DNA of 64,000 nt from Candidatus Xenobia bacterium (GTDB taxonomy: Bacteria > Vulcanimicrobiota > Xenobia > Xenobiales > QWHO01), in contig BTUM01000008.1 of the NCBI GenBank assembly GCA_045863235.1, positions 72,767 to 136,766 of the forward strand, read 5' to 3'. The notes beneath the pieces were generated by a model, which made no database searches, was not told the DNA's origin, and saw only the letters and a list, made by a program, of their open reading frames with translations. The translations under genes were made by a program, and so were the position numbers. Shown here in pieces: positions 28,531 through 44,331 of this stretch (its first letter is position 1; each line of letters opens with the position of its first letter).

Positions 28531-30546
28531 GTGCAGATCCCGCCCACCGGATTGACCTTTTCCCCGGCGCTGCGGCCCCAGGTCGCTGCCGACGCTCAGG
28601 CTCCTGTGCAGGCAGCGGCCGAACAGCGGCCGGCCCGTCTGCCAACGGTGGCCGAGCTGAGGCAATGGGCCATGTGCGAGCCGGAGCGTGCCCAGAGCGA
28701 GCTGCTCGGCCTCCTGAAAGGGCGAGCCGAAGGTCTGGCGCGCCTGCGAGCCGTGCTGACGGCGGCCAAAGGCGATGAGCCTTTGAAACGTTTGCTCGAG
28801 CCGCACCGGCAGCAGATCTGGAGCACGGGCAACATGGCCTTCAATCTCAAGCTGCTGGAGGAGAAGCACCTGCCCGACACCGGTTTCGCGCAGCGCGAGT
28901 TGTGGCCCCGGGTGGGCGAGAGCTCGGAAGCGACCCGAGCCCTGCAGACCTTGTGGGAAGTGGCAGGCCCTTACGACCGTAATCAAAGGTTGGCTCCTCT
29001 GCTGACCCTGGAGCGACCGATCGGCCAGGAAATGGGCACCCTGCTGGAACAGCAGTTCACCCGTTGGAGTCGGCCGGGAGCCGAGTTGCGTGCTCACCTG
29101 CAGGCCCGGGTGGAGCAGTCGCTGACCCGGCTGGCCGAGCACCCCCTGGGCCAGGCGCTGCCCGACCCCGAGCTGGAGGCCCATCGCCAGCAACTGCAAG
29201 CGCTGACGCCATTCGTGGAGGACAAGCAGCTGGCCCGGCGCTTGCTGGAGCGGGTGATGGCCGATCCCAGCTTGGCGCTCTTTAGCGAAGCCGGCAAGGC
29301 TTCGGGACTTGCCAGCCTTGTCTACCAGCGGATCTTTCCCGACCCGGAAATCAGCCAGGCTCTGCTCTCTGAGCTTGGCAGCGAGCTGAAGTCGGCCGGA
29401 AGCCTGGCCGGGCTCTCCGAGCGGGGTCTACGGGTGTTCGGTGTGCTGGTGGCCCAGGCCGACGACCGGTCCGTGATGGGCCCGCTGGGGGCCGTTCTGG
29501 AAGACGAATTCCGCCGGCCTCACAGCGACCCGAATCAGGCCGAGCTGCTGACCCGCCTGCTGGTTCTGAATGCCAGTGCCTGCTCCAGCGCCTTGCAGGG
29601 CAACTGGCGCATGGAAGAGAGCTTTCCACGCTTGCGCCAGATGGTGGAGCTGCTGGTGGAGTCCAAGTGGGCCCACGCCGACCGCCAGTGGCACCACCTC
29701 GAGAACGGCTGGGCGGGGGGGCTGACCGAGCAGTTGGAGAAGCACCTCTGGCACGGAATCTATGGCCAGGATCCGGTGCCCACCGTGGCCCCCGTTCAGG
29801 ACGGGTCCCTCAGCCTGAGCGTCAAGGCGGGCCGCCAGCACGTGGCCGAAATGCTGGACCAGTTTGCCGCCGGACCCGAGAATCCCAAGGCCGGGGCGGC
29901 CATCCAGATCCTCGAGCATCTGGCCCAGCGCGATCAGATCCTGGCCGATCACCTCCTGGCCGACAGCAAGACCCTGCTGCGAGACTGGAACTCCGTGCCC
30001 GTCGAAGGGGTGCGCTACGCTGTCGCGCGCCTGCGTAACCGCCTGCTCGAGCGCAACCTGAAGCTGCCGGCCGCCGAGCGCGAGGCAAAGCGCGAGGAGA
30101 CGCTGCAGATCGCCGCCAGCATGGGACGCGACGGCGTGCCCCTGGTGACCGCACTGCAGACCTACTACCCGGCCGTGACCCCGGTGGCCACCCGGCTGCT
30201 CGATCCGCAGGCGGTGCTGGCCCTGTATCAGGAGGTGCAGTCACACGGGCCCAACCTCAATCAGCGCTTCGAGTGGGTGGATCGCCTGCTGACCCTGGTA
30301 CAGGCTCAGGGCTCGGAGCACGTCTTGGAGGATACCCTGAAGGGCTATCGGCGGCTGGAAGAGCTGCTGGCCAGCGGCCAGAGCCTGACTCAGGCCATGC
30401 AGGTGGTCGCTCTGGAGATCCTCGACCTCAATGGCCTGCTCGGCGGGCAGCCGAACGCCGGCCGAGCGCCCACCATGATTCGGGAGGATTCCACCTCCAC
30501 GACTTTCGGAGGCAGCCGGCTCAAGAAACGACGGGTCAGCGACTGA
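28531..30546 (+). CDS. Large helical hypothetical protein with C-terminal FGGSRLKKRR tag
   Basis: 671-aa Leu/Ala/Glu-rich ORF with GC3 bias, filling the gap between Fpg and heparinase genes. Confidence 0.75.
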   Translation: MQIPPTGLTFSPALRPQVAADAQAPVQAAAEQRPARLPTVAELRQWAMCEPERAQSELLGLLKGRAEGLARLRAVLTAAKGDEPLKRLLEPHRQQIWSTGNMAFNLKLLEEKHLPDTGFAQRELWPRVGESSEATRALQTLWEVAGPYDRNQRLAPLLTLERPIGQEMGTLLEQQFTRWSRPGAELRAHLQARVEQSLTRLAEHPLGQALPDPELEAHRQQLQALTPFVEDKQLARRLLERVMADPSLALFSEAGKASGLASLVYQRIFPDPEISQALLSELGSELKSAGSLAGLSERGLRVFGVLVAQADDRSVMGPLGAVLEDEFRRPHSDPNQAELLTRLLVLNASACSSALQGNWRMEESFPRLRQMVELLVESKWAHADRQWHHLENGWAGGLTEQLEKHLWHGIYGQDPVPTVAPVQDGSLSLSVKAGRQHVAEMLDQFAAGPENPKAGAAIQILEHLAQRDQILADHLLADSKTLLRDWNSVPVEGVRYAVARLRNRLLERNLKLPAAEREAKREETLQIAASMGRDGVPLVTALQTYYPAVTPVATRLLDPQAVLALYQEVQSHGPNLNQRFEWVDRLLTLVQAQGSEHVLEDTLKGYRRLEELLASGQSLTQAMQVVALEILDLNGLLGGQPNAGRAPTMIREDSTSTTFGGSRLKKRRVSD

Positions 30547-32641
30547 ACTGCCGTTCGAGCTCCTCGGCCCGGGGGACGGCGGGATCGCCTGGCTCCCAGC
30601 CAAACCAGAGATAGACCACAGCTGGCAGAGTGACTCTGCAGTAGTAGCGCAACCGCTGGGTGGCCACCGGCCGGCCGTTCTCTGACCAGACCCAGCCGGC
30701 GAAGGGCTGGGTACGACCCTTATGCATCTCGTAGCGAAAGCGAGTCGGAAAAACCGGATGGATGCGGGCCTGCAGGCGGCGCCCCCGGAGCAGGCAACCC
30801 ATGTCGCCTCGCATCATCACGTCGATGTGAGGGGCGAGCAGCAAGACCTCCTCGAGTTGCACTTCCCCCTCGCCCTCCAGGCTGTCGCGCACGGCCAGGC
30901 GCTTCTTCTCGGGCTGGAACAAGAGCTCACGACGCAGACGGAAGGGTCGCTCGGAGCCCATCCAGACGTCGCGGCCGCCGGCCATGGAGAGGCCTTCGCG
31001 GCGCTGCTCCACGGCCAGGCGATGTCCCTCCCCGCTGAGCTGCAGGGGCTCGAGCTCTCCGGCCACGCGCGGGGCTGAGTGGCAGGAAAGGGAGGCGAAG
31101 GCCTGAGCCACCGAGCCTGGAGCTGCCGGCCCTCCCGGCTCGACCAGGACGGGCTCGCCCTCCAGGGTCAGGACCAGGCTGAGCAGATCGTCGTGGGCAA
31201 GGGGGGGCGGGAACCTGGACTCGGGGGGTGCCTCCAGCGGCAAGCCCCGCAGCAGGCACCAGCTCGAGCGCGACTCCCAGCCGTCGCGCACGGTCACCAG
31301 CCCGGCCTCGGGATAATATCCTCCCACCGGGGGCAGAGCGGTATCGCTCAACGAGTCATAGCGCGACTGGGCCGAGGGGCCGAACCACCAGAGCATCTCC
31401 ATCGGCATCTCCCCCGCCAGTCGCGCCAGCGCCCCGTGCCCCAGGGCCAGAGCCCCGAAAGCGAGCAAGCGCTGGGTGTGCTCGGAGGGGCCACAACAGC
31501 GGCCCAACAGGCCCGGACCCTGGCCACGTCCGATCTCGGGCACGAGCGCGTTGGGCGGGCGCAGATGGCAGAGGGCCTCCAGAGCCTCCTGGGCCCGAGC
31601 TGCCAGGACATCACCGGTGTGCATCTGGTTCAGGCGGTGCAGAGCTGCTGGCAGCAACAGCCACTCGCAAGCCTGGCGCTGGGCTGCCGCGGAACCGCTC
31701 TTGTGCAGTCCGTCCTGGCCCAACTCGTTCTGGACACAGATCGGGAAAGCCGCCGATGACTGGCGCAGCCACTTCTTGCTGAGCACCAGCTCGGGCAGGG
31801 TCAGGGCCAGCACCTGCAGCGCCGAGGCCGTGCAGAGGCGGGGGTGCTCGTGCAAGCTGCGCGACAGAGCCAGACCGTGTAACAGCAGCGTGCGCAGTAC
31901 ACGGCCCAGCACATCGGCCGTCAACTGGGCCGACTTGAGGAAGTAGTGCATGGCCAGCAGCCAGTTCAGGGTGCGGTGGGCCACCATCTCGGGGTCCATC
32001 CAGTTGACCCCGAAGAGAGGCGGATTGCGCTCGCTCCAGTCCACCATCTGCACGATGAACTCGCTGGCGAAGCGCTCATGGCCGGTCAGCCAGTAAGCCC
32101 GCCCCATGTCCACGAAGTGACCGTGACGGTTGAATTCCCAGGTCACCTGGATGGCCGCCTCGGGACTCGTCCCCGCCAGCTGCTCCTCGAGGTCCTCCAG
32201 CGAGCCGTACATCCACGAGCCGCCCTTGAAGTCGGAGAACCAGTCGATGGCTCCCTGAAAGCTCTGCTCCTCCACCCCCAGAGGGCCAAAGGTGTGGTGC
32301 AGCGCCCGCTCGACCTCGCTCAGAAGCCGGTTGGCCTCTTCGCGCCGCTCGGCCAGAGCCGGCCGCAGCATATCGCACTCGGTGAAGTGCAAGAAGAATA
32401 GCGGACGGATCCGGTCGTGGAAGTGCTCGAGCAGGTGCTCGGAAGCCTCATGCAGGCGCTGGGCCCGGGCAGCGGCCCGAGCTTCCTCCAGCGCCGCGGT
32501 GAGCGGACTGAGCTGAAAGTAGAGGTCAGGCTCCTCGAGCGTGAGCGGAAGGCGCTCGTGCACATGCTCTGAGAGCCGCGCCTCCAGGTCTTCCTGGTGG
32601 CCCAGCAGAGTCTTGACGCGCTTCTTCAGACCCTTGAACAA
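30536..32641 (-). CDS. Heparinase II/III-like protein
   Basis: WEFNRHGHF, AYWLTG, W..RNPP..GVNW N-terminal domain followed by a beta-sandwich region; TTG start after the degT stop is inferred. Confidence 0.75.
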   Translation of the reverse strand: MFKGLKKRVKTLLGHQEDLEARLSEHVHERLPLTLEEPDLYFQLSPLTAALEEARAAARAQRLHEASEHLLEHFHDRIRPLFFLHFTECDMLRPALAERREEANRLLSEVERALHHTFGPLGVEEQSFQGAIDWFSDFKGGSWMYGSLEDLEEQLAGTSPEAAIQVTWEFNRHGHFVDMGRAYWLTGHERFASEFIVQMVDWSERNPPLFGVNWMDPEMVAHRTLNWLLAMHYFLKSAQLTADVLGRVLRTLLLHGLALSRSLHEHPRLCTASALQVLALTLPELVLSKKWLRQSSAAFPICVQNELGQDGLHKSGSAAAQRQACEWLLLPAALHRLNQMHTGDVLAARAQEALEALCHLRPPNALVPEIGRGQGPGLLGRCCGPSEHTQRLLAFGALALGHGALARLAGEMPMEMLWWFGPSAQSRYDSLSDTALPPVGGYYPEAGLVTVRDGWESRSSWCLLRGLPLEAPPESRFPPPLAHDDLLSLVLTLEGEPVLVEPGGPAAPGSVAQAFASLSCHSAPRVAGELEPLQLSGEGHRLAVEQRREGLSMAGGRDVWMGSERPFRLRRELLFQPEKKRLAVRDSLEGEGEVQLEEVLLLAPHIDVMMRGDMGCLLRGRRLQARIHPVFPTRFRYEMHKGRTQPFAGWVWSENGRPVATQRLRYYCRVTLPAVVYLWFGWEPGDPAVPRAEELERQFSR

Positions 32642-32648
32642 ACCGCCT

Positions 32649-33761
32649 TCAGACGGCGCCCACGGGCGCGCCAAAGAACTGATGGACCACTTTGGAGACG
32701 GTGGCCGTCTGGTCCTCGGTCAACTCGGGGAACATGGGGAGAGAAAGCACTTCGTGCTGGGCCTTCTCGCTTTCGGGCAGGCTTCCCGCCGGAATCTGCA
32801 GATCGGCGAAAAGGGGCTGCTGGTGCAGGCAGACGGGATAGTAAACCACGCTGCCTACGCCGTGGTCATTGAGGTAGGCCTGCAGCTCCTTGCGCCGGGC
32901 GGTGCGAACCGTGTACTGATGATAGACGTGGTACGCGCCCGGGGTCGCCTGAGGCACCGTCACCACGTCGCTCAAGAGCTTGTGGTAGCGCTCGGCCACC
33001 TGGCGACGGCAGGTGTTCCACTGATCGAGATACTTCAGCTTGACACGCAGGGCGGCGGCCTGGATCTCGTCCAGGCGGCTGTTGGTGCCCAGAATTTCGT
33101 GGTGATACTTCTTGGCGCTGCCGTGGCCGCGCAGCTTGCGCACCTTCTCGGCCAGCTCGGGGCGGTTGCTCAGCACCATTCCGCCGTCCCCGATCCCGCC
33201 CAGGTTCTTGGACGGGAAGAACGAGAAGCAACCGAAGTCGCCGATGGTCCCCACTTTGCGGCCGTTGTAAGTGCAGCCGGCGGCCTGGGCGCAATCTTCG
33301 ATGACGGCGAGCTTGTGGCGCGAGGCCAGGGCCATCAGCTCGTCCATCGGAGCGGCATTGCCGTAGAGGTGGACCACCACGAGGGCCCGCGTGCGGGGGG
33401 TGATGGCCCGCTCCACGCTGGCCGGGTCGAGGCAGTAAGTCACCGGGTCGATGTCGGCAAAGACCGGCCTGGCTCCCGCCAGTGCCACCGCTCCGGCCGT
33501 GGCCATGAAGGTGAACGAGGGACAGATCACCTCGTCGCCAGGGGCGATGTCGAGGGCCCGCACCGCCAGGTGCAGGGCGTCGGTGCCGTTGGCCACGCCG
33601 ATGCCGTGAGCGGCCTGGTTGTATGCTGCAAACTCGTTCTCGAAGGCCTGGACCTCGGGGCCCAGAATGTAGTGGGTGCCACGCAGTGCGCGCAGGACGG
33701 CCTCTTCCAGCTCCTGGCCGATATTCTTGTACTGGCTGGCCAGCTCTAAGATCGGGATCAT
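32649..33761 (-). CDS. DegT/DnrJ/EryC1/StrS PLP-dependent sugar aminotransferase
   Basis: VANGTDAL, IEDCAQA, FSFFPSKNLG (PLP Lys), NSRLDEIQAA. Confidence 0.95.
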   Translation of the reverse strand: MIPILELASQYKNIGQELEEAVLRALRGTHYILGPEVQAFENEFAAYNQAAHGIGVANGTDALHLAVRALDIAPGDEVICPSFTFMATAGAVALAGARPVFADIDPVTYCLDPASVERAITPRTRALVVVHLYGNAAPMDELMALASRHKLAVIEDCAQAAGCTYNGRKVGTIGDFGCFSFFPSKNLGGIGDGGMVLSNRPELAEKVRKLRGHGSAKKYHHEILGTNSRLDEIQAAALRVKLKYLDQWNTCRRQVAERYHKLLSDVVTVPQATPGAYHVYHQYTVRTARRKELQAYLNDHGVGSVVYYPVCLHQQPLFADLQIPAGSLPESEKAQHEVLSLPMFPELTEDQTATVSKVVHQFFGAPVGAV

Positions 33762-34825
33762 ACGGTCTCCTTTGCTCTTTTGCTCGGGACGGCTTCGTGG
33801 GCGAGGACGTCCAGAATTCGTTCGGCCGTGAGGCCGTCTCCATAAAGCTCGGGGTGGGCGGCCGGGGGACGGGTTGTTAGCCCCGCCAGGATGCGGGCCC
33901 GGTCGTGCCCCACCAGCGTGTTCCAGCCGGCGGCCACCGTCTCCACCCACTCGGTCTCTTCGCGCAAGGTCAGGCAGGGGGTCTTGAGCAGATAGGCTTC
34001 CTTCTGCAGCCCTCCCGAGTCGGTCAGCACCAGGCTGGCCCGCTCGAGCCAGGCCAGAATCTGGCGGTGGCCGGCAGGCGGCAACAGACGCACGGGCCCG
34101 TCCTCGAGCAGCCGGTCCAAGCCGGTCTGGCGCAGGATCTGCAGGGTGCGAGGGTGACAGGGGAAGAGCACCGGCTGGCCGTGCTCGCGCAACACCGTCA
34201 AAATGACTTCCAGGCCCTCAGGAGTCATCTCGGCCCGGTGCATGGTCAGCAGCAGGTAGGGGCCTTCGGGGGCCGGCTCGGCGGGCGGGCCGGCCAGAGT
34301 GCGGCGCAGGGAGTCCACCATGATGTCGCCCACCAGGTGCACGCCGCCGGTGATGTTCTCCCGGGCCAGGTTGTCCACCGCAGTCTGGCAGGAGGCGAAA
34401 TTCCAGCGGGCCAGATGGTCGGTCAGCACCCGATTCACCTCTTCCGGAACGCGCATGTCGAAGCAGCGCATCCCCGCCTCGACGTGGGCCACCGGTATGT
34501 GCAGCTTGGCGGCCGCGAGAGCCCCCGCCAGGGTGCTGTTGGTGTCGCCGAAAACCAGCAGCACGTCGGGCGACTCGGCGAGCAGGATCTCCTCCACGCG
34601 CTCCAACATGCGCCCGGTCTGGGCTCCGTGGGGAGCCGAGCCCACCCCCAGGTGGTGCTGAGGGCGAGGCAGCCGCAGCTCGTGGAAGAACTGGTCGGAC
34701 ATCCCCTCATCGTAGTGCTGGCCGGTATGCACCAGCACGCTTTCAAATCGGCCTGCCATGGGCTCGATCAGAGGGGCCAGCTTGATAAACTGGGGGCGGG
34801 CCCCCACCACGGTAACGATCTTCAC
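33758..34825 (-). CDS. wecB: UDP-N-acetylglucosamine 2-epimerase (non-hydrolysing)
   Basis: VGARPQFIK, HTGQHYD, GDTNSTLA, HVEAG.R, TDSGGLQKEA. Confidence 0.95.
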   Translation of the reverse strand: MKIVTVVGARPQFIKLAPLIEPMAGRFESVLVHTGQHYDEGMSDQFFHELRLPRPQHHLGVGSAPHGAQTGRMLERVEEILLAESPDVLLVFGDTNSTLAGALAAAKLHIPVAHVEAGMRCFDMRVPEEVNRVLTDHLARWNFASCQTAVDNLARENITGGVHLVGDIMVDSLRRTLAGPPAEPAPEGPYLLLTMHRAEMTPEGLEVILTVLREHGQPVLFPCHPRTLQILRQTGLDRLLEDGPVRLLPPAGHRQILAWLERASLVLTDSGGLQKEAYLLKTPCLTLREETEWVETVAAGWNTLVGHDRARILAGLTTRPPAAHPELYGDGLTAERILDVLAHEAVPSKRAKETV

Positions 34826-36588
34826 GCTCCCCGCCTTTCTGGCAACAGCACGGGCGGCCTCAATTGCGATTCGTAGATGCGCGAGTAGAAACCACCCCGC
34901 TCGAGCAGGGTGGCGTGCTCACCCTCTTCCACCACCTGACCGCCCTCGAGCACCAGAATGCGGTGGGCATGGCGGATGGTGTTGAGACGATGGGCGATGA
35001 CCAGGCAGGTGCGCCCGCGCATGGCGCGCTCGATGGCCTCGGTGATCTGGGCCTCCGACTCGGAGTCGATGGAGGAGGTGAACTCGTCTAAAATAAGCAC
35101 TTTCGGGTCGCGCAGCATGGCTCGGGCGATGGCGATCCGCTGGCGCTGGCCGCCACTCAAGCGGGCGCCGCGCTCGCCCACCTGGGTGGCATAGCCGTCC
35201 GGCAAGCGGGTGATGAAATCGTGGGCGTTGGCCAGCCGCGCCGCTTGCTCGAGCTGCTCGGGGGTAGCCACGAACCCGCAGGCGATGTTCTCGGCGATGG
35301 TCCCGGTAAACAGGGAAGACTCCTGGATCACCACCCCGACCTGCCGGCGGAGGCTGGAGGCCGTCACCTGGCGGATGTCGTGCCCGTCCACCCGCACCAC
35401 TCCGGCGGTGGGGTCGTAGAAACGGGGGATCAAGTTGACCAGGCTGGTCTTGCCCGCCCCGTTCGGGCCCACGATGGCCACCACTTCACCGGGCGCGATG
35501 GTGAGCGTCAGATCGCTCAAGATCGGCTTACCCGGCTGGTACTCGAAGCCCACGCCCTCCAGGCGAATCTCGCCCCGGATCGGAGGCAGCTCGCGGGCGT
35601 CGGGCGCGTCGGCGATATCAGGTGCCTCGTCGAGCACCTCGAAGAGCCGCTTACCGGCAGCGGTGGCGACCTGGAACCGGGCATAGCTGTCGGCCAGCTT
35701 GTTGATGGGATTGGAGGTCATGATCATCAGCATCCAGTACTGGATAACGGCCGTGAACGTGACCGTGCCCTGCAGAATGCGCAGAGCGCCGAACCAGATG
35801 ATGGCCACGATGGCCAGTGCGCACAGGATGTCGGTGAGGGGCAACTGGAACGAGGAGATCTGGATCAACTTGAGCTGAGCTGCGAAGTTCTCTTCGTTCT
35901 TGCGCTCGAAACGCTCAATCTCAAGATTCTCCCGGGTGTAAGCCTTGACGACCTTGATGTTGCCCAGGCTTTCGTGCAGGATGGCGATGAGGTCGGCCAG
36001 CCTGACCTGGATGCGTTCGGTCACAGTGTTGATTCTCTGCCCGATACGCGAGATGGTGATCCCCAGCAGAGGGCTCAGAGTCAAAACCATCAGCGTCATC
36101 TGCCAGTCGAAGTAAACCATCAGGCTGAATGCCCCGGCCACCATCAACAGGTTCTTACCGAAGTCAGCCAGCAACGGATACACGCTGGTGCTGGTCTGAA
36201 TGTCATTGGAGAGGCGGGAGATGAGGTCACCCTGGTTGTTGCGGTCGAAATAGGGGACGCTCATGCGCTGGAGATGGCGGAAAATCGCGTTGCGAAAGTC
36301 GCGCACGGCCAGTTGACCGGCCATGTCCACCAGGTAGCGCATCAAGTAGCCCACCACGCCGCCAGCCAGCATCACAAGCATGAATCCGCCGCAAATGAGG
36401 TTCAGCTCGATCAGCGGGTCGCGGCCCTGGTAATTGAAGTTCTCCTCGGTCATCAGCCCGAACAACCTTCCGACGAAAAGGGGCTGGACCAGTTGCGTGA
36501 CAGTACCCAGGCAGGTCATGATCAAACCGCCCAGGACATACTTCCAGTAGGGTCGCAGATAGCCCAGAATGCGGCCTAGAATCCGCAT
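34822..36588 (-). CDS. ABC exporter, fused permease/ATPase (MsbA-like)
   Basis: TM domain, GPNGAGKT, LSGGQRQR, ILDE, IAHRL. Confidence 0.92.
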   Translation of the reverse strand: MRILGRILGYLRPYWKYVLGGLIMTCLGTVTQLVQPLFVGRLFGLMTEENFNYQGRDPLIELNLICGGFMLVMLAGGVVGYLMRYLVDMAGQLAVRDFRNAIFRHLQRMSVPYFDRNNQGDLISRLSNDIQTSTSVYPLLADFGKNLLMVAGAFSLMVYFDWQMTLMVLTLSPLLGITISRIGQRINTVTERIQVRLADLIAILHESLGNIKVVKAYTRENLEIERFERKNEENFAAQLKLIQISSFQLPLTDILCALAIVAIIWFGALRILQGTVTFTAVIQYWMLMIMTSNPINKLADSYARFQVATAAGKRLFEVLDEAPDIADAPDARELPPIRGEIRLEGVGFEYQPGKPILSDLTLTIAPGEVVAIVGPNGAGKTSLVNLIPRFYDPTAGVVRVDGHDIRQVTASSLRRQVGVVIQESSLFTGTIAENIACGFVATPEQLEQAARLANAHDFITRLPDGYATQVGERGARLSGGQRQRIAIARAMLRDPKVLILDEFTSSIDSESEAQITEAIERAMRGRTCLVIAHRLNTIRHAHRILVLEGGQVVEEGEHATLLERGGFYSRIYESQLRPPVLLPERRGA

Positions 36589-36610
36589 GGATTGAACCGC
36601 GCCCACCTGC

Positions 36611-37084
36611 TTACCCCAGCGGCTCGAGCAAGAAGATCTTTTGCCCGGACTCGACCACGGCGGCGTTCTCGACGAGGATGCCGGCAACGCGACCGGGCAT
36701 CTCAGCGGTGATCTCGTTCATCAGCTTCATGGCTTCAATGATGCAGAGAGTCTGGCCCACGCTCACATGGTCGCCCACCTGCACGAAGGGCGGAGCCCCC
36801 GGGTTGGGGGAGCGATAGAAAACACCCGCCAGAGGCGAGACCACTGGTCTCAAGTTCTCGTTGGCAGGCTCGGGAGCGGCCGTAGCAGGCCGGACCGGAG
36901 AGCGTCTGGCCGCCACCGCCAGCGGCGTCTGGACGGGGACCGCTACCGGTTGAGCCTCCCCCGTATCCACGATCAGGTGGATACGCGCGTTCTCGTTGCG
37001 ATAATCGATCTCGGCCAGACCTTCTTCCCGGGCCACCCGAGCCAGAGCCCGGGCTAATTCGAGATGTTCCTTCAATCCGCTCAC
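36611..37084 (-). CDS. accB: Acetyl-CoA carboxylase biotin carboxyl carrier protein
   Basis: SPLAGVFYRSP.P, IEAMKLMNEI biotinyl-Lys motif. Confidence 0.93.
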   Translation of the reverse strand: MSGLKEHLELARALARVAREEGLAEIDYRNENARIHLIVDTGEAQPVAVPVQTPLAVAARRSPVRPATAAPEPANENLRPVVSPLAGVFYRSPNPGAPPFVQVGDHVSVGQTLCIIEAMKLMNEITAEMPGRVAGILVENAAVVESGQKIFLLEPLG

Positions 37085-37277: not shown

Positions 37278-39503
37278 TTACGAACGTCGGGAAGACGAGG
37301 AAGAGCGCCGGCGACGTCCTCCTCCGCTGCTCGAGGAGGCGGAACGTTGCCCGCCGCCACCCGAGCCACCCGAGCCACCTGAGCCGCTCGAGCGGCGGCG
37401 CCGACGAGAGCTGTCCGAATCGCCATCCGAAGCCCGGTAGCGCGAAGCAGCGGCCCGACTCGACTCGAGCAAAGCCAGCTTGGAATCGACCGGGGCTGGC
37501 TCATCGTCGTCGTCTCGAGTCCGACGGCCACGCGGCTCGTCATAGTAGTCCTCGTCGTGATAACGAGGGGCTGGCTCGCTGCGGCGGTAATCGTCCTCGT
37601 AAGAGGGTGGCGCGCTCCTGCTACCGCTCCGGCTCCCGCTCCCACCCCCGCTTGTGCTGGCGCTACTGCGACCGCGCCGCCCGCGGCCCGAGCTTTCGTA
37701 GGCTCCGGTTTCCACGCTCGATTCGCGCGCAGAGCGGTACCGGTCGTCGCGTCCTCGACCCGAGCGAGGGGCCTCCTCGCGACTGTACTCCTCCCGCTCG
37801 CGATAAGCGGGCGGCTCGTCACGATAATCCTCTCGCTCATAGCGGGGCGAATAGTCTTCTCGCTCGTAGTCGTCATAGTAGCGGCGAGTCGAGCTCTCCT
37901 CGTATCGATCGTCGGGCGGGTAAGCAGCCGCTCGCTCGGAAGTCGAGGTGCGGCTCTCTGCTTCGGAATCACGCCGACTGCGACGGCGCCGACGCGAGCG
38001 ACTGGAAGTGCGCTCCTCTTCGGGCTCGTGAGTCGAGACGTGGCGGGTCTCGACCGGAGGAGCATCGTCCTCCTGACCTCGCCGACGGCGACGGCGGCGC
38101 TTGGAGCGCCCGTCCCCCCGCTCGGAAGCGGTCGCAGGCTCTTGCTGCTGGTCGTAGTGCACCTCGAGGTCTGACTCCACGTTGAAGTGGCGCCCGCGCA
38201 GAGCTCCGTTTCGCCGGGTGCCGCCACGCCCAGAGCGGCTCTCCTTCTCTCGTGGAGCGCGCTCGGCCGGAGCCACCGCGCCTCCCATGCCGAGTCGACT
38301 GGCCAGCCGGTGGGCCAGTTCGCTCAGGTTGTAGCGATCCTTGTGGTCGCTGTGACGGTCGTGAACCTGGGCCACGCCCCGGATAGCGTCCTTCTCGCTC
38401 AACAGAACGAGGAAACGAGGAGCCTCGGGAGCTTCCTCTCCGCCCAGCGCCATTTCAGCGTAAATCCCAGCCTCGCGCAGCACATTCAGAACCGGCATCA
38501 GAAGACGGGTGGCTTCCTCGCCTTCCGGCTGCAGGTAAACCGATGGAGAGGGCCGCGTGAACTCGCCGGGCACAGCTTCCAGAATCGCTTCCAGTTGGAG
38601 GGCAAAGCCGACGGCCGGGGTATCCGGTCCACCCAGGGTCTCCACCAGGCCATCATAACGACCACCGGTGCCCAGCACCGATTCGCCGTGTCGAACCTGG
38701 AAGATTGTGCGGTTGTAATACTCCAGGTCGCGCACCACGCGCGGATTCAGGTCGTGAGGAATCTTCATCTCGGCCAGATAGGCCTTGAGCTGACTGAAAT
38801 GCTGCTTACAGGCCGGGCAGAGCAGGCCGAACATGGTGGGGGCCACCTGCCCGAGCTCAGCGCAACTCTTCTCGTTGCAACCCAGCGTCCAGAGCGGATG
38901 AGTCTTGTGCTTGCGCTTGCAAGTTCCACAAAGCTCGTTGGAATGGGACGAGAAGTACTCCTTGAGAACCTCATGGTAAGCCGGGCGACACTTGTCGCAT
39001 CCCAACGAGTTGAGCTCGAAGACCACGTCGCTCAAGCCGATGCGCTTGAGGAACGCCCAGGCCAGGGCGATCACCTCGGCATCCTGGGCCGGGTGGGGCG
39101 AACCCAGAGCTTCGACCCCGAACTGGTGGCTCTGTCGGCTGCCTTCCTCGGTCTCCCGGCCGATCAGGAAGACGGGGGCCAGGTAGTAGAACTTGCTGAC
39201 GCCCTGGTTCTTCTCGTTGAGGTTGTTCTCATAGTAAGCGCGTACCACCGAAGCGGTGACATCGGCTCGCAAGGCCAGCTTCTGGCCAAACTTGTCGTGG
39301 AAGGTCCAGAGCTCGCGCTCGACGAGCCCGGCCAGGACTCCCATCCCCCTCACGAAAAGCTCCGCCTTTTCGAACAGAGGGGTTCGAATCTCGAGATAAC
39401 CGTATTGCTGACTGAGTAACCGGGCCTGACTCTCGATCAGTTGCCAGCGGGATGTCTCTTCCGGTAGTAGATCACGGGTGCCACGCACCGCTCGGACAGA
39501 CAT
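37278..39503 (-). CDS. Histidyl-tRNA synthetase-like protein with degenerate motifs 2/3 and long charged C-terminal extension
   Basis: RGTRDLLP, EIRTPLFE, LALRADVTAS, VVRDLEYY, GGRYDGLV indicate the HisRS fold; SD GGAGG; catalytic Arg residues absent (see findings), so hisS symbol withheld. Confidence 0.88.
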   Translation of the reverse strand: MSVRAVRGTRDLLPEETSRWQLIESQARLLSQQYGYLEIRTPLFEKAELFVRGMGVLAGLVERELWTFHDKFGQKLALRADVTASVVRAYYENNLNEKNQGVSKFYYLAPVFLIGRETEEGSRQSHQFGVEALGSPHPAQDAEVIALAWAFLKRIGLSDVVFELNSLGCDKCRPAYHEVLKEYFSSHSNELCGTCKRKHKTHPLWTLGCNEKSCAELGQVAPTMFGLLCPACKQHFSQLKAYLAEMKIPHDLNPRVVRDLEYYNRTIFQVRHGESVLGTGGRYDGLVETLGGPDTPAVGFALQLEAILEAVPGEFTRPSPSVYLQPEGEEATRLLMPVLNVLREAGIYAEMALGGEEAPEAPRFLVLLSEKDAIRGVAQVHDRHSDHKDRYNLSELAHRLASRLGMGGAVAPAERAPREKESRSGRGGTRRNGALRGRHFNVESDLEVHYDQQQEPATASERGDGRSKRRRRRRRGQEDDAPPVETRHVSTHEPEEERTSSRSRRRRRSRRDSEAESRTSTSERAAAYPPDDRYEESSTRRYYDDYEREDYSPRYEREDYRDEPPAYREREEYSREEAPRSGRGRDDRYRSARESSVETGAYESSGRGRRGRSSASTSGGGSGSRSGSRSAPPSYEDDYRRSEPAPRYHDEDYYDEPRGRRTRDDDDEPAPVDSKLALLESSRAAASRYRASDGDSDSSRRRRRSSGSGGSGGSGGGGQRSASSSSGGGRRRRSSSSSRRS

Positions 39504-39525
39504 GATTCACAAACCTCCGCGGATG

Positions 39526-39926: not shown

Positions 39927-41234
39927 TCAGGAAACGACCTCTTCGATCAATGGCCGCGGGCTGGTTGGGGTGGCTGCAATCGAGATAGCTTCGCCGATCA
40001 GAGCCCGAGAGGTCTGGAGTTGGGAACGGTCGTTGACGTGGAACGTCAGCAAAGGCTCTCCGGCTTCGACCCGATCGCCCAGGCGTTTGTGGAGGACAAG
40101 TCCGACGGCGTGATCGATGGGGTCGTCCTTGCGCAGTCGACCTGCCCCCAGCACCATCGCCGCGCGGCCCAGGGTCTCTGCCTGCAGACTTGCCACAAAG
40201 CCCGACTCAGGGGCCGGATAGTCCTCCAGGTGAGACGCGGTGGGCAAGAGTCCCGGGTCGTCCACCACCCGAGCGTCCCCTCCCTGGGCACTGATGAGTT
40301 CACGCAACTTCTCGGCGGCCGCGCCGGACTGTATCAATCGGCCAGCCTCGGCGCGCGCAGCCGAAAGGTCCGACTGCAAACCGGCCATTTCCAGCAGATG
40401 AGCGGCCAACTCGCGGGCCACCTGAGCCAGCGCCGAATCTGCCCGCTGACCCTGGAGAATCTCAATGGCCTCACGAAACTCGAGCGCGTTGCCGATGTGC
40501 GTTCCCAAGGGTTGCTCCATATCCGACAGGGCGGCGCGAACCTTGCGACCCAGGCGCTTGCCAATGGCCACCATCGAGCGAGCCAGGCGACGGGCGTCTT
40601 CCAGATTCTTCATGAACGCCCCGTGACCAAACTTGACGTCCAGCAGGATCGCATCGGCGCCACAGGCGAGCTTCTTGCTCATGATCGAGCTGGCGATCAG
40701 GGGGATGGAATCCACCGTGGCGGTCACATCGCGCAGGGCGTACATCTTGCCATCGGCCGGCACCAGGCTCCCGGTCTGGCTGATGACGGCCACACCGATG
40801 CGGCGCACCTGCTCGAGAAACTCCTCGGCTGACAGGTTGACGCGCAGCCCGGGCACAGACTCCATTTTGTCCAGCGTGCCTCCGGTGTGGCCCAGACCCC
40901 GCCCCGACATCTTGGCCACCCGGGCCCCTGCGGCGGCAGCCAGTGGTGCTAGAACCAGCGTGGTCGTATCCCCCACCCCTCCGGTGGAGTGCTTGTCGAC
41001 CTTGACGCCGGGGATACTGGAAAGGTCGACCGTGTCCCCCGATGCCACCATCGCCTCGGTGAGCCAGCCAGTCTCCTCGTCGGTCATGCCCCGAAGAAAG
41101 ACTGCCATCATCCAGGCCGACATCTGGTAGCTCTCCATGCGGCCAGCCACGAACTCGCTGATCAAGAAGCGGATTTCCTCGGCGCTGTGGGCCTCTCCGT
41201 CGCGCTTGCGTCGGATCAGGTCGTAGACCCTCAT
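39927..41234 (-). CDS. pdp: Pyrimidine-nucleoside (thymidine) phosphorylase
   Basis: VDKHSTGGVGD, KMSGRGLGHTGGTLDK, YALRDVTATV, SIMSKK. Confidence 0.96.
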   Translation of the reverse strand: MRVYDLIRRKRDGEAHSAEEIRFLISEFVAGRMESYQMSAWMMAVFLRGMTDEETGWLTEAMVASGDTVDLSSIPGVKVDKHSTGGVGDTTTLVLAPLAAAAGARVAKMSGRGLGHTGGTLDKMESVPGLRVNLSAEEFLEQVRRIGVAVISQTGSLVPADGKMYALRDVTATVDSIPLIASSIMSKKLACGADAILLDVKFGHGAFMKNLEDARRLARSMVAIGKRLGRKVRAALSDMEQPLGTHIGNALEFREAIEILQGQRADSALAQVARELAAHLLEMAGLQSDLSAARAEAGRLIQSGAAAEKLRELISAQGGDARVVDDPGLLPTASHLEDYPAPESGFVASLQAETLGRAAMVLGAGRLRKDDPIDHAVGLVLHKRLGDRVEAGEPLLTFHVNDRSQLQTSRALIGEAISIAATPTSPRPLIEEVVS

Positions 41235-42753: not shown

Positions 42754-44007
42754 TCAGAACACCTCGCTCAGCCAGCGACCGACCCGGGTCAACATGACCT
42801 TGACCTTGGACGGGCCACCCTCATCCTCGAGAGAATCCGCGCTGCGCACGGCTCGCCGGACAGCGGCGTGCAAAATCAGGCCCACGGCTGAGGAATAAAT
42901 GGGCGAAGCCAGCGAGTCCATCAAGCCCGGGGGATAGCAGGGCGTCGCGATGCGGGCCGGAAGGCTCAACTCGCGGTGAGCCAGATGAGCGATCCCCGGC
43001 AACTGGGCCGTGCCCCCGGTAATGACCAGGTTGGTGACGACCAAACCCATTCGCTCAGCCAGCTGGATCTGCTTGCCCACCCAGTCGAAGACATCCAGCA
43101 GACGAGCCTCGAGCACTTCGGCCAGTTGGATGCGGGAGACGGGAACCTTCTGATCTCCGGCCAGGCTCAAGGCCTCCAGCATCTCGTCGTCACCCTCGTG
43201 ATAGTCGGGCGAAGCGACCCCACGCTCGAGCTTGAGCCGCTCAGCCTCGGCCGGGGGAATCCGGAAGAAACGGGCAAGATCGTGGGTCAGGAAGTCGCCC
43301 GCCACCGGAAGCACCCCCGAATGGCCGATCTCTCCGTCACAGTAAACGGCCAGGTCGACCGTACCGGCCCCGATATCGATCATTGCCGTGCCCAGCTTGC
43401 GCTCTTCCTCGGTCATCACGGCCAGGGCCGAAGCGATGGAAGAGGCCACCATACCGTCATTCTCGACCTCCAGGCCAGCTTTCTGGACGCACTTGCGCAT
43501 ATTCTGCAAGAAGGCCGAGGCGGCAGCCACCACATGGGTGTTCACCTCCAACCGAATACCAGATAGGCCAACCGGATTGCGGATGCCGCTCTGGCCATCG
43601 ACCGTAAAGCCACGAGGCACGATGTGAAGAATCTCGCGGTCCGAAGGAATGCCCACCATGCGTGCGGCATCGATCACGCGCCGCACGTCGGAACTGGTCA
43701 CCTCGCCCTCGGGGCTGGAAATCGCCCACACGCCCTGAGCGGGCAAAGAGCGCAGATACTCACTGGAGAGACTCAGGTAGACCGGACCGACAGGATAACC
43801 GGCCTGCTTCTCAGCATCGCCCACGGCCTCTTCAATCGAGCGAACCGTTTCTTCGGGGTCGACCAGGGCGCCTTTGCGCAGACCAAGGCAGGGGCTGACT
43901 CCGTGCGAAACGACCTCCAGCTCGCCACCGGCATCGAGCTCTGCGATCACGCAAGCCACTTTGCTCGTGCCGATGTCGACGGCGGTAAGAACTTCCATCC
44001 TGGGCAT
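42754..44007 (-). CDS. ftsA: Cell division protein FtsA
   Basis: DIGTSKV, GLRKG, IDIGAGT, AERLK, VITGGTAQL, YSSAVGL. Confidence 0.95.
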   Translation of the reverse strand: MPRMEVLTAVDIGTSKVACVIAELDAGGELEVVSHGVSPCLGLRKGALVDPEETVRSIEEAVGDAEKQAGYPVGPVYLSLSSEYLRSLPAQGVWAISSPEGEVTSSDVRRVIDAARMVGIPSDREILHIVPRGFTVDGQSGIRNPVGLSGIRLEVNTHVVAAASAFLQNMRKCVQKAGLEVENDGMVASSIASALAVMTEEERKLGTAMIDIGAGTVDLAVYCDGEIGHSGVLPVAGDFLTHDLARFFRIPPAEAERLKLERGVASPDYHEGDDEMLEALSLAGDQKVPVSRIQLAEVLEARLLDVFDWVGKQIQLAERMGLVVTNLVITGGTAQLPGIAHLAHRELSLPARIATPCYPPGLMDSLASPIYSSAVGLILHAAVRRAVRSADSLEDEGGPSKVKVMLTRVGRWLSEVF

Positions 44008-44178
44008 ACTTGCACCCCTCAAAGGGTAGTCTCTGGTGTAGCTGGCAAGCTCGCTGCACGCTTACTTGCGGTGTTGGCCTAATTGGTTCGGGCCGGCTCT
44101 TGAATTTCCTTCCAGGCCAGAAGAAAAAGCCCGACGATCCGCGCTCTGGGTTTCTTGGAGCGGGCCCGCGACTCCTCG

Positions 44179-44207: not shown

Positions 44208-44247
44208 ACCCCGGCTGTATTTTATCGTGCGGCGCAGAAGCCAATTC

Positions 44248-44331
44248 AGCGACGACAGGAGCGGTCGACGGAGTTAGCGGCGACAGGAGCGGTCGACGGA
44301 ATTAGCGACGACGGGAGCGGCCGACAGAATT
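44248..44331 (+). repeat. Three tandem 28-bp repeats in the rplU 5' leader
   Basis: agcgacgacaggagcggtcgacggagtt / agcggcgacaggagcggtcgacggaatt / agcgacgacgggagcggccgacagaatt. Confidence 0.92.

Follow-up and report, generated by a model that had tools for sequence, protein, structure and literature searches.

Is a gene that scores as a histidyl-tRNA synthetase (HisRS) necessarily one, and if it is not, what is it kept for? The question is raised by a 741-codon gene in a 64,000-nucleotide stretch of Candidatus Xenobia bacterium (assembly GCA_045863235.1, contig BTUM01000008.1, positions 72,767 to 136,766 of the forward strand; this whole stretch is the window in the following), where it occupies 37278..39503 on the minus strand, its reading frame opening at 39503 and its stop codon lying at 37278. 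We find that it represents a real, class-wide and misannotated family of HisRS pseudoenzymes of independent origin with a C-terminal tail predicted to be disordered. An initial annotation, made from the sequence alone, had called it a pseudo-synthetase, a label strongly supported by a second, intact hisS in the genome, no clustering with HisZ and substitutions kept under purifying selection. It had also ended the gene at 38290 (405 codons); the open reading frame (ORF) runs on to 37278 and encodes 741 amino acids, so that a tail of about 330 residues was missed, as were the class-wide distribution and the status of the gene as a displaced native one.

Residues 1-405 are those of a HisRS. The TIGR00442 (hisS) model gives 298 bits, above its curated cut-off of 286.75, which accounts for the misannotation as an active ligase; database orthologues are named 'histidine--tRNA ligase' under the labels Eremiobacterota, Vulcanimicrobiota or Armatimonadetes. 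The HisZ model TIGR00443 reaches 153 bits, far under its cut-off of 271.65, and the best PDB sequence match is Staphylococcus aureus HisRS 1QE0 (E 1e-67). An AlphaFold model of residues 1-411 (pLDDT 93.7) compares in Foldseek with a TM-score of 0.89 to HisRS 4E51 and with 0.77-0.89 across bacterial-type HisRS structures, and the predicted fold is class IIa with an anticodon-binding domain. This domain is folded in the model, is short by about 8-10 residues, one helix included, as the initial annotation had recognised, and has lost the anticodon-reading Glu of the GExE motif; PF03129 matches it only in the orthologue P0048. Pfam gives no domain other than PF13393 at E≤10, hence no fused kinase or pseudokinase. 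The reading frame is no assembly artefact, since an RNA contig from an independent metatranscriptome (run X1) crosses the junction of body and tail with 0 differences. RNA contigs from runs X1, X2, X3 and X5 match parts of body and tail, a comparison that covered 4 of the 24 listed runs; it shows that these sequences occur in RNA libraries and says nothing about their strand, their level or a single transcript. No sigma-70 site was found, and one terminator-like match lies inside the gene, at chance level. The features of the gene are listed below; residue numbers such as R113, E115 and R311 are those of E. coli HisRS, with 1KMM as the alignment reference.

37278..39503, minus strand: whole gene, a HisRS-fold pseudo-synthetase with a C-terminal low-complexity tail (ORF, translation, profile scores, RNA contigs on body and tail)
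39514..39518, minus strand: GGAGG, a Shine-Dalgarno-like site 10 nt ahead of the ATG (sequence)
38574..39503, minus strand: class II catalytic domain with insertion, residues 1-310 (PF13393 at 8-307, AlphaFold model, Foldseek)
39252..39272, minus strand: LRADVTA loop, residues 78-84, site of the histidine amino group, with E83->D and T85 kept (alignment)
39123..39170, minus strand: remodelled motif 2, residues 112-127, with R113, E115 and R121 lost and R116, R123 and Q127 kept (alignment)
38808..38999, minus strand: Cys-rich insertion region, residues 169-232, with the new invariant W205 (alignment)
38715..38735, minus strand: HisA loop VRDLEYY, residues 257-263, with R259, Y263 and Y264 kept and the family-fixed changes G260->D and D262->E (alignment)
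38652..38666, minus strand: HisB motif GGRYD, residues 280-284 (alignment)
38586..38609, minus strand: motif 3, residues 299-306, with G304 kept and G308 and R311 lost (alignment)
38289..38546, minus strand: shortened anticodon-binding-type domain, residues 320-405 (model, alignment)
37278..38276, minus strand: tail, residues 410-741 (composition, dN/dS, orthologue AlphaFold)
38151..38189, minus strand: conserved island in the tail, residues 439-451, specific to family f1 and exact in 6/87 tails (tail motif search)
38079..38099, minus strand: Arg run in the tail, residues 469-475 (tail motif search)
37458..37490, minus strand: second conserved tail island, residues 672-682, specific to family f1 and exact in 7/87 tails (tail motif search)

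The changes that would abolish catalysis lie in motifs 2 and 3. Motif 2 reads F112-LIG-R116-ETEEGS-R123-Q-S125-HQ where E. coli HisRS has F112-RHE-R116-PQKGRY-R123-Q-F125-HQ, that is, R113->L, E115->G, R121->G and F125->S relative to 1KMM, and motif 3, GFALQLEAIL, carries G308->Q and R311->A (A306 in the protein's own count); both sets of substitutions had been noticed at the outset and are borne out by translation and alignment. For the residue tally, 86 distinct order-level sequences were set against 73 canonical ones (55 from the database and 18 native HisRSs of the phylum). R113, E115 and R311 are each kept in 0/86. Of five ATP-site residues (R113, E/D115, R121, G308, R311), none is retained by 62/86 and a single one, Arg at 121, by the remaining 24/86, as against all five in 72 of the 73 canonicals. 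Which residues bind ATP and which bind histidine is assigned here in part from the general structural literature on HisRS. R113 is described as one of the charged residues that all HisRSs conserve (PMC8558854), and E114 of Thermus thermophilus HisRS, the equivalent of E115, as essential for aminoacylation (PMC4357726). Judged by these residues, the protein very probably neither binds ATP nor forms histidyl-adenylate and would be catalytically dead. The replacement of the adenine-stacking Phe (F125->S), which had been counted among the signs of inactivity, is real, but S, A or H stands at this position in 11/18 native HisRSs of the phylum, so that its loss is undiagnostic and was rejected as such a sign.

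The histidine pocket has been treated differently: over 72 sequences that are often just ~50% identical its polar residues are near-perfectly kept, while 33/83 canonical-invariant sites are lost. The elements LRADVTA, VVRDLEYY and GGRYDGLV, correctly recognised in the initial annotation, are present, and the pocket (E83, T85, Q127, E131, R259, Y263, Y264, Y288, G304) is complete here at 9/9, with E83 as Asp. Across the 86 sequences all nine residues occur in 64, seven or eight in a further 9 (thus at least seven in 73) and at most four in 13; in the main group of 72, Asp at 83 and T85 are each found in 72/72. The same group mostly keeps the residues that clamp G-1 of tRNA-His (R/K7 in 71, R/K116 in 69, R123 in 70), which correspond to R7, R115 and R122 holding the G-1 phosphate in T. 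thermophilus HisRS (PMC4357726). Other residues are new. W66, W205 and P337 are fixed in 86/86 sequences and D259 in 85/86, position 205 being W in every family member and R in 73/73 canonicals, and these residues point to new constraints. The Cys-rich insertion seen initially does have all eight of its Cys; with Cys at 192, 195 and 209 in 55/55 database canonicals, such an insertion is a usual trait of the nearest canonical HisRSs.

The gene is neither sporadic nor decaying. Orthologues (query residues 1-411, E≤1e-20) occur in 41/44 genomes of the class. The three genomes without a match (G001, G029 and G036) are 90%, 78% and 72% complete, the last two being too incomplete to judge; in G001 a DNA search left the entire block from the HisRS-like gene to ftsA unmatched, so that incompleteness or rearrangement is as likely there as gene loss. 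In a profile search of 1.84 billion representatives the long proteins ranked first; among the 143 aligned rows (the query and 142 new matches) R113, R259 and R311 are all present in 117, and most of the other 26 are family members or fragments. Outside the class, 22 HisRS-type loci (one a fragment) were inspected, drawn from 115 genomes that include the unpublished G122, on which no conclusion depends by itself, and the degenerate kind appeared in 0. By the Nei-Gojobori method, dN/dS for 10 pairs, some with sequences in common, is 0.016-0.129 in the body and 0.079-0.307 in the tail (9 pairs, the tenth being saturated; 0.12-0.26 within the genus), compared with 0-0.195 for the intact HisRS (8 pairs). 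The orthologue check proposed in the initial annotation thus shows the substitutions kept under purifying selection, and random decay of the gene was rejected. One copy of the gene may be broken, namely that of G021 (75% complete), where just two fragments remain at the ends of contigs and one of them contains two stop codons. Two further proteins may be mentioned. In another order, G091 has a tail-less, heavily remodelled orthologue (L139/L181, G091:C381:5179-6465), which sits on a long branch, has a more complete anticodon domain and differs in its neighbouring genes; and P0257 (458 aa, from the representatives) is another degenerate HisRS that keeps R113, has lost R311, reads RDYGYY in the HisA loop, lacks a long tail and is possibly an independent decay.

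Who, then, charges tRNA-His? A second PF13393 match in the source genome (G000, 97.6% complete) lies on contig C59 and is a 434-aa HisRS with all motifs intact and a TIGR00442 score of 345 bits, so that the search for a canonical hisS, suggested initially, was successful. The two HisRSs are mutually distant, with no BLASTP match at E 1e-8. Degenerate and second HisRS occur together in 37/41 genomes; 15 of the second copies were motif-checked directly, all being intact, and most others were recognised by similarity to L002. One tRNA-His with a genomic G-1:C73 pair is found among the 62 tRNA calls of the genome, and no tRNA gene was found in the window. As to histidine metabolism, hisG, hisD and hisB were not found in this genome, in line with the earlier remark that the gene is not beside hisG, while a gene of the histidine-ammonia-lyase family (hutH-like) and urocanase (hutU) are present. 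In the order, his genes are patchy and hisG occurs in just 6/41 genomes; the one inspected in full (L126, G013:C2) encodes 308 aa of the long-form type and is followed by a hisC-like gene. To the HisA/HisF family the source genome gives a strong match and another below the cut-off, the strong one (L129, G000:C6:115616-116305) being perhaps a polysaccharide-pathway HisF paralogue.

Where the degenerate gene came from is indicated by trees and, above all, by its locus. A careful tree of 34 rows unites the long proteins in a single clade (94/95; order members 100/100), which falls within bacterial-type HisRS and is split 100/100 from HisZ and the intact copies. An approximately unbiased (AU) test rejects a clade of the long proteins with the phylum's HisZ at p=0.000588 (0.0006 when rounded), so that the tree, like the profile scores proposed for the same check, places them outside HisZ; given in addition that hisG, hisD and hisB were not found, the HisRS-like protein is not a HisZ. 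A recent duplication of the intact HisRS was also rejected (AU p=4.7e-5 against a clade of long and intact proteins). An 89% sister relation to other HisRSs of the phylum, seen in a quickly searched 91-row tree, is not recovered in the 34-row tree, and with this unresolved backbone the tree alone is no proof of vertical descent. The locus supports such descent. In other classes native hisS lies directly upstream of accB in 13/17 loci (in two of the rest it is followed by the next genes of the accB block, and two lie at contig edges); the degenerate gene is upstream of accB in 18/34 order genomes and also in G040 and G158, and in G097 it follows alaS, as the native gene of G043 does. Because it occupies the native hisS locus of other classes, we take the gene to be the displaced native hisS. 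The intact HisRS, of an archaeal/eukaryote-like clade, was presumably acquired by horizontal transfer. The only HisRS in four genomes of families f10, f15 and f16 is of the replacement type, which suggests that the old gene was lost there. The neighbours in the window are:

39927..41234, minus strand: pdp, pyrimidine-nucleoside phosphorylase, upstream neighbour (profile match, context)
36611..37084, minus strand: accB (BCCP), downstream neighbour and marker of the ancestral locus (profile match, context)

The upstream neighbour is pdp in 34/34 order genomes examined, mostly in the order ftsA-nrdR-punA-pdp; in the window ftsA (42754-44022, minus strand; TIGR01174, 363 bits) adjoins nrdR, punA and pdp. 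On the other side, 30536-37084 (minus strand) holds accB, an MsbA-like ABC exporter, an epimerase, an aminotransferase and a heparinase II/III-like gene, a block of which parts follow hisS phylum-wide; from their translations we take the epimerase to be WecB-like and the aminotransferase to be DegT-like. Elsewhere in the window, an intergenic element of ~50 bp at about 44240-44320 has at least eight matches of 86-100% across G001 contigs and resembles a REP repeat, and a 671-aa ORF at 28531-30546 (plus strand) has no Pfam match at E≤0.1.

The tail comprises 332 residues (73 R, 59 S, 37 E, 28 D, 33 G and 19 Y), 42% of them charged and 4% ILVFMWC, with alternating charge blocks. In a full-length AlphaFold model of the orthologue P0007 it is unstructured (pLDDT 39-54), without ordered docking of tail motifs. 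Tails vary from 130 to 650 aa (full-length class orthologues from 558 to 1086 aa) and are poorly conserved in sequence between families, their character being common to them: a run R[RK]{4,} occurs in 53/87, a [RK][RK]LxR motif after the body in 54/87, and lineage-specific islands such as LNWSI-type motifs in 52/87. The tail matches nothing in Pfam and nothing usable in the Atlas, and its motifs were not found elsewhere in the genome's predicted proteome. That the tail is a shadow ORF or an artefact of read-through was rejected, since it is in frame in all tailed orthologues with dN/dS <0.31 and the RNA contigs show frame-preserving 6- and 9-nt indels. Similar segments were found in 12/4977 predicted genes of at least 150 aa (home-made gene caller). 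The other 11 include Rho, PNPase, a SpoU methylase, three HD-domain proteins, a DUF3300 protein and a caspase-like protein, and three of the 11 have no Pfam match above cut-off. PNPase (L191, G000:C62:43626-46535) reaches ~970 aa and ends in an Arg-rich tail of ~260 aa with mixed charge, and an insertion of ~330 aa in Rho (L189, G000:C2:171467-173731) is of the same type. The open frames of RNase E/G in the class are mostly 550-720 codons, so that this enzyme probably lacks a long scaffold tail; with such segments in PNPase and Rho and short RNase E/G frames, degradosome scaffolding may be differently distributed here. Among other Arg-rich proteins, L188, L190 and L194 (G000 C37, C35 and C55) are HD-GYP-type proteins of 883-1767 aa with Arg-rich low-complexity regions ahead of the HD domain, and a 684-aa ORF (L187, G000:C26:83415-85466) without Pfam or NCBIfam match has the genome's longest Arg-rich mixed-charge region. 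The C-terminal region of RNase E is described as likewise poorly conserved and disordered, with alternating charge blocks and Arg-rich patches that drive condensates (BR-bodies) in Caulobacter (10.1101/272286), the likeness to our tail being one of composition only.

What might such a protein do? Our tentative preference, which we hold with some reserve, is a non-catalytic, histidine-responsive RNA-binding regulator or scaffold. On this account the lineage's original bacterial-type hisS was displaced when a HisRS of another clade took over tRNA charging; the old gene was retained under purifying selection, lost the adenylation residues and gained the mixed-charge, presumably disordered tail; and its product, probably a dimer, would bind RNA and partner proteins multivalently through the tail, in the manner of the RNase E C-terminal region. 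Since the body retains the G-1 clamp and, across most of the order, the histidine pocket too, histidine binding could switch the binding of RNA or partners, as it does in HisZ, and a histidine auxotroph that also degrades histidine might in this way tie RNA handling to its histidine supply. That the protein binds a ligand or RNA, forms condensates or has a partner is in each case inferred here.

Several results weigh against this proposal. Of the 13 pocket-less sequences, 12 come from the genera g3 and g7, which have genomes of 1.9-3.3 Mb, and one is a similar database protein; three g3 pairs nevertheless give body dN/dS values of 0.016-0.022, and as pocket-less members stay under purifying selection, binding of histidine or G-1 is not the family-wide reason for retention. 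The sensing of histidine or tRNA proposed in the initial annotation is thus plausible for most of the order, where pocket and G-1 clamp are kept, and fails as a family-wide function (13/86 keep ≤4/9 pocket residues, and the small-genome pairs tested still have dN/dS ~0.02). The pocket residues may also persist for structure. R123 is kept in just 4/14 sequences with P258, and the tRNA 3'-end and anticodon contacts (E115, Q118, R121, R205, K210, GExE Glu) are mostly lost, the T. thermophilus residues R120, Q117, R204 and K209 being reported to touch the 3' end and E388 and K397 to read the anticodon (PMC4357726). Urocanase is found in 4/12 genomes of the pocket-less genera and in 28/32 others, a weak association that amounts to a single evolutionary event confounded with genome reduction. 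The sister family f4 (G040, G097, G158) shows the opposite decay, keeping R113 and R311 and replacing R259, and the 430-aa form of G091, from another order, has no tail. Arg-rich tails are not confined to RNA enzymes, as three HD-domain (HD-GYP-type) proteins carry them, and no partner was identified. Finally, no T-box or riboswitch was found in the 423-bp leader (a lone Rfam match at E 0.04, far below the gathering score, lies outside it), whose RNA fold is unremarkable (z=-0.41).

The strongest competitor, possible if rather doubtful, makes the protein a ligand-independent scaffold, that is, a folded, probably dimeric platform that displays the tails through a new surface (W66, W205, D259, P337), the pocket being a structural relic. 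It would account well for the pocket-less members with small genomes, which are strongly selected and long-tailed (proteins of 730-1086 aa), for the new invariant residues common to pocket-keeping and pocket-less members, and for lineage-specific tail islands that resemble short binding motifs, in a class whose RNase E/G probably has no long scaffold tail of its own. It sits badly with the near-perfect retention of the polar pocket amid the loss of other canonical-invariant sites, and with the tail-less G091.

A quite improbable alternative borrows the logic of HisZ, in which the histidine pocket is kept and adenylation lost (PMC10795190, PMC9437257), and sees the protein as an allosteric subunit that answers to histidine and belongs to some enzyme besides HisG; histidine ammonia-lyase and the nucleoside phosphorylases encoded next to the gene are examples. 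The constant upstream position of pdp in the order, the common hut genes and a HisA loop (RDxEYY) resembling the RD[LFI]xYY of the phylum's HisZ speak for it, but pdp is not adjacent in the four f4/f5 class members examined and is separated from our gene by a 423-bp gap, the co-occurrence test covers urocanase only, and the long tail is left unexplained.

We regard as improbable, too, that the protein handles charged His-tRNA without ATP (by sequestration, hydrolysis or histidine transfer) or serves an active HisRS as a dead partner, in the way that SLIMP is described to heterodimerise with SerRS (PMC9437257). Pocket, R259 and G-1 clamp are the set expected of a binder of His-tRNA(His), D259 and E261, both new and acidic, line the site, and the single tRNA-His has the G-1:C73 pair; yet the contacts to A76 and the CCA end are lost, pocket-less members exist, and a heterodimer with the intact HisRS is unlikely because the two are only distantly related. 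That the gene encodes a still working HisRS, slow or stress-specific, as the TIGR00442 score, the database names and the intact fold might suggest, is very improbable with R113, E115 and R311 absent throughout the 86 sequences and an intact HisRS present. A classical HisZ, the regulatory subunit of short-form HisG, is hardly credible despite the protein's HisRS fold without adenylation residues and its kept histidine pocket, as hisG was not found in the source genome or in most of the others and is long-form where fully inspected, TIGR00443 stays far below its cut-off and the AU test rejects the clade.

Comparison with known systems sharpens the picture of the family. With bacterial HisS (1KMM, 1QE0, 4RDX) it shares fold, domain order, histidine loops, Cys-rich insertion and a locus upstream of accB, with ~40% identity to Firmicutes-type HisRS; it differs in that R113, E115, R121 and R311 are gone, the HisA loop is altered, the 3'-end and anticodon contacts are eroded, a tail is added and an intact HisRS stands alongside. 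HisZ is likewise a non-adenylating HisRS paralogue with a histidine site, and the HisA loop of the phylum's HisZ also has Asp after Arg, whereas our family has an independent origin, mostly carriers without a hisG found, a long tail and an HMM score much closer to HisS. Strongly diverged HisZ-like proteins that lack the Arg of motifs 2 and 3 occur in family f12 (L131 and L132, in G047 and G052). The HisRS-like domain of GCN2 is also a pseudoenzyme used for signalling, with catalytic and anticodon-type domains kept; as described, it has lost histidine binding, keeps the motif-2 Arg for tRNA, is eukaryotic and is fused to a kinase (PMC11363354). Retention here is the opposite, and the appended module is a presumably disordered tail rather than an enzyme. 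SLIMP (an insect SerRS paralogue) and the archaeal LeuRS-I and LeuRS2 are kept with little or no aminoacylation, and some bind tRNA; they belong to other synthetase families and are described as duplicates (PMC9437257), whereas in our case it is the native gene that has died. In Lactobacillus hdc clusters a histidine auxotroph likewise has a further gene of HisRS type, HisRS2, but it keeps the catalytic residues and sits in a histidine decarboxylase cluster (PMC4122935).

A bolder version of the regulator that we tentatively prefer, and an unlikely one, would make the protein an independently evolved bacterial functional analogue of GCN2: a sensor of histidine or of the tRNA(His) end whose tail would seed or enter ribonucleoprotein condensates together with PNPase, Rho or the short RNase E/G, placing RNA decay or termination class-wide under the control of histidine supply. 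If it were true, f4, G091 and g3/g7 would be living intermediates that record the passage from synthetase to regulator.

Two reviews on aminoacyl-tRNA synthetases that were searched name HisZ alone as a bacterial HisRS paralogue; the eukaryotic case is GCN2. No literature was found on a HisRS paralogue in Eremiobacterota, and among the listed works on Xenobia or Vulcanimicrobiota no title or opening of an abstract deals with synthetases, which does not prove absence from print. The family would be a third, independently evolved HisRS pseudoenzyme besides HisZ and GCN2. A HisRS-like gene is here under selection as strong as that on a real synthetase, in nearly every genome of the class, and its route is unusual: a native essential gene was retired after replacement and then repurposed, in contrast to the four f10/f15/f16 genomes, which have the replacement type and in which a second copy was not seen. 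Because the intermediates are graded, the steps of this route can be tested on purified proteins.

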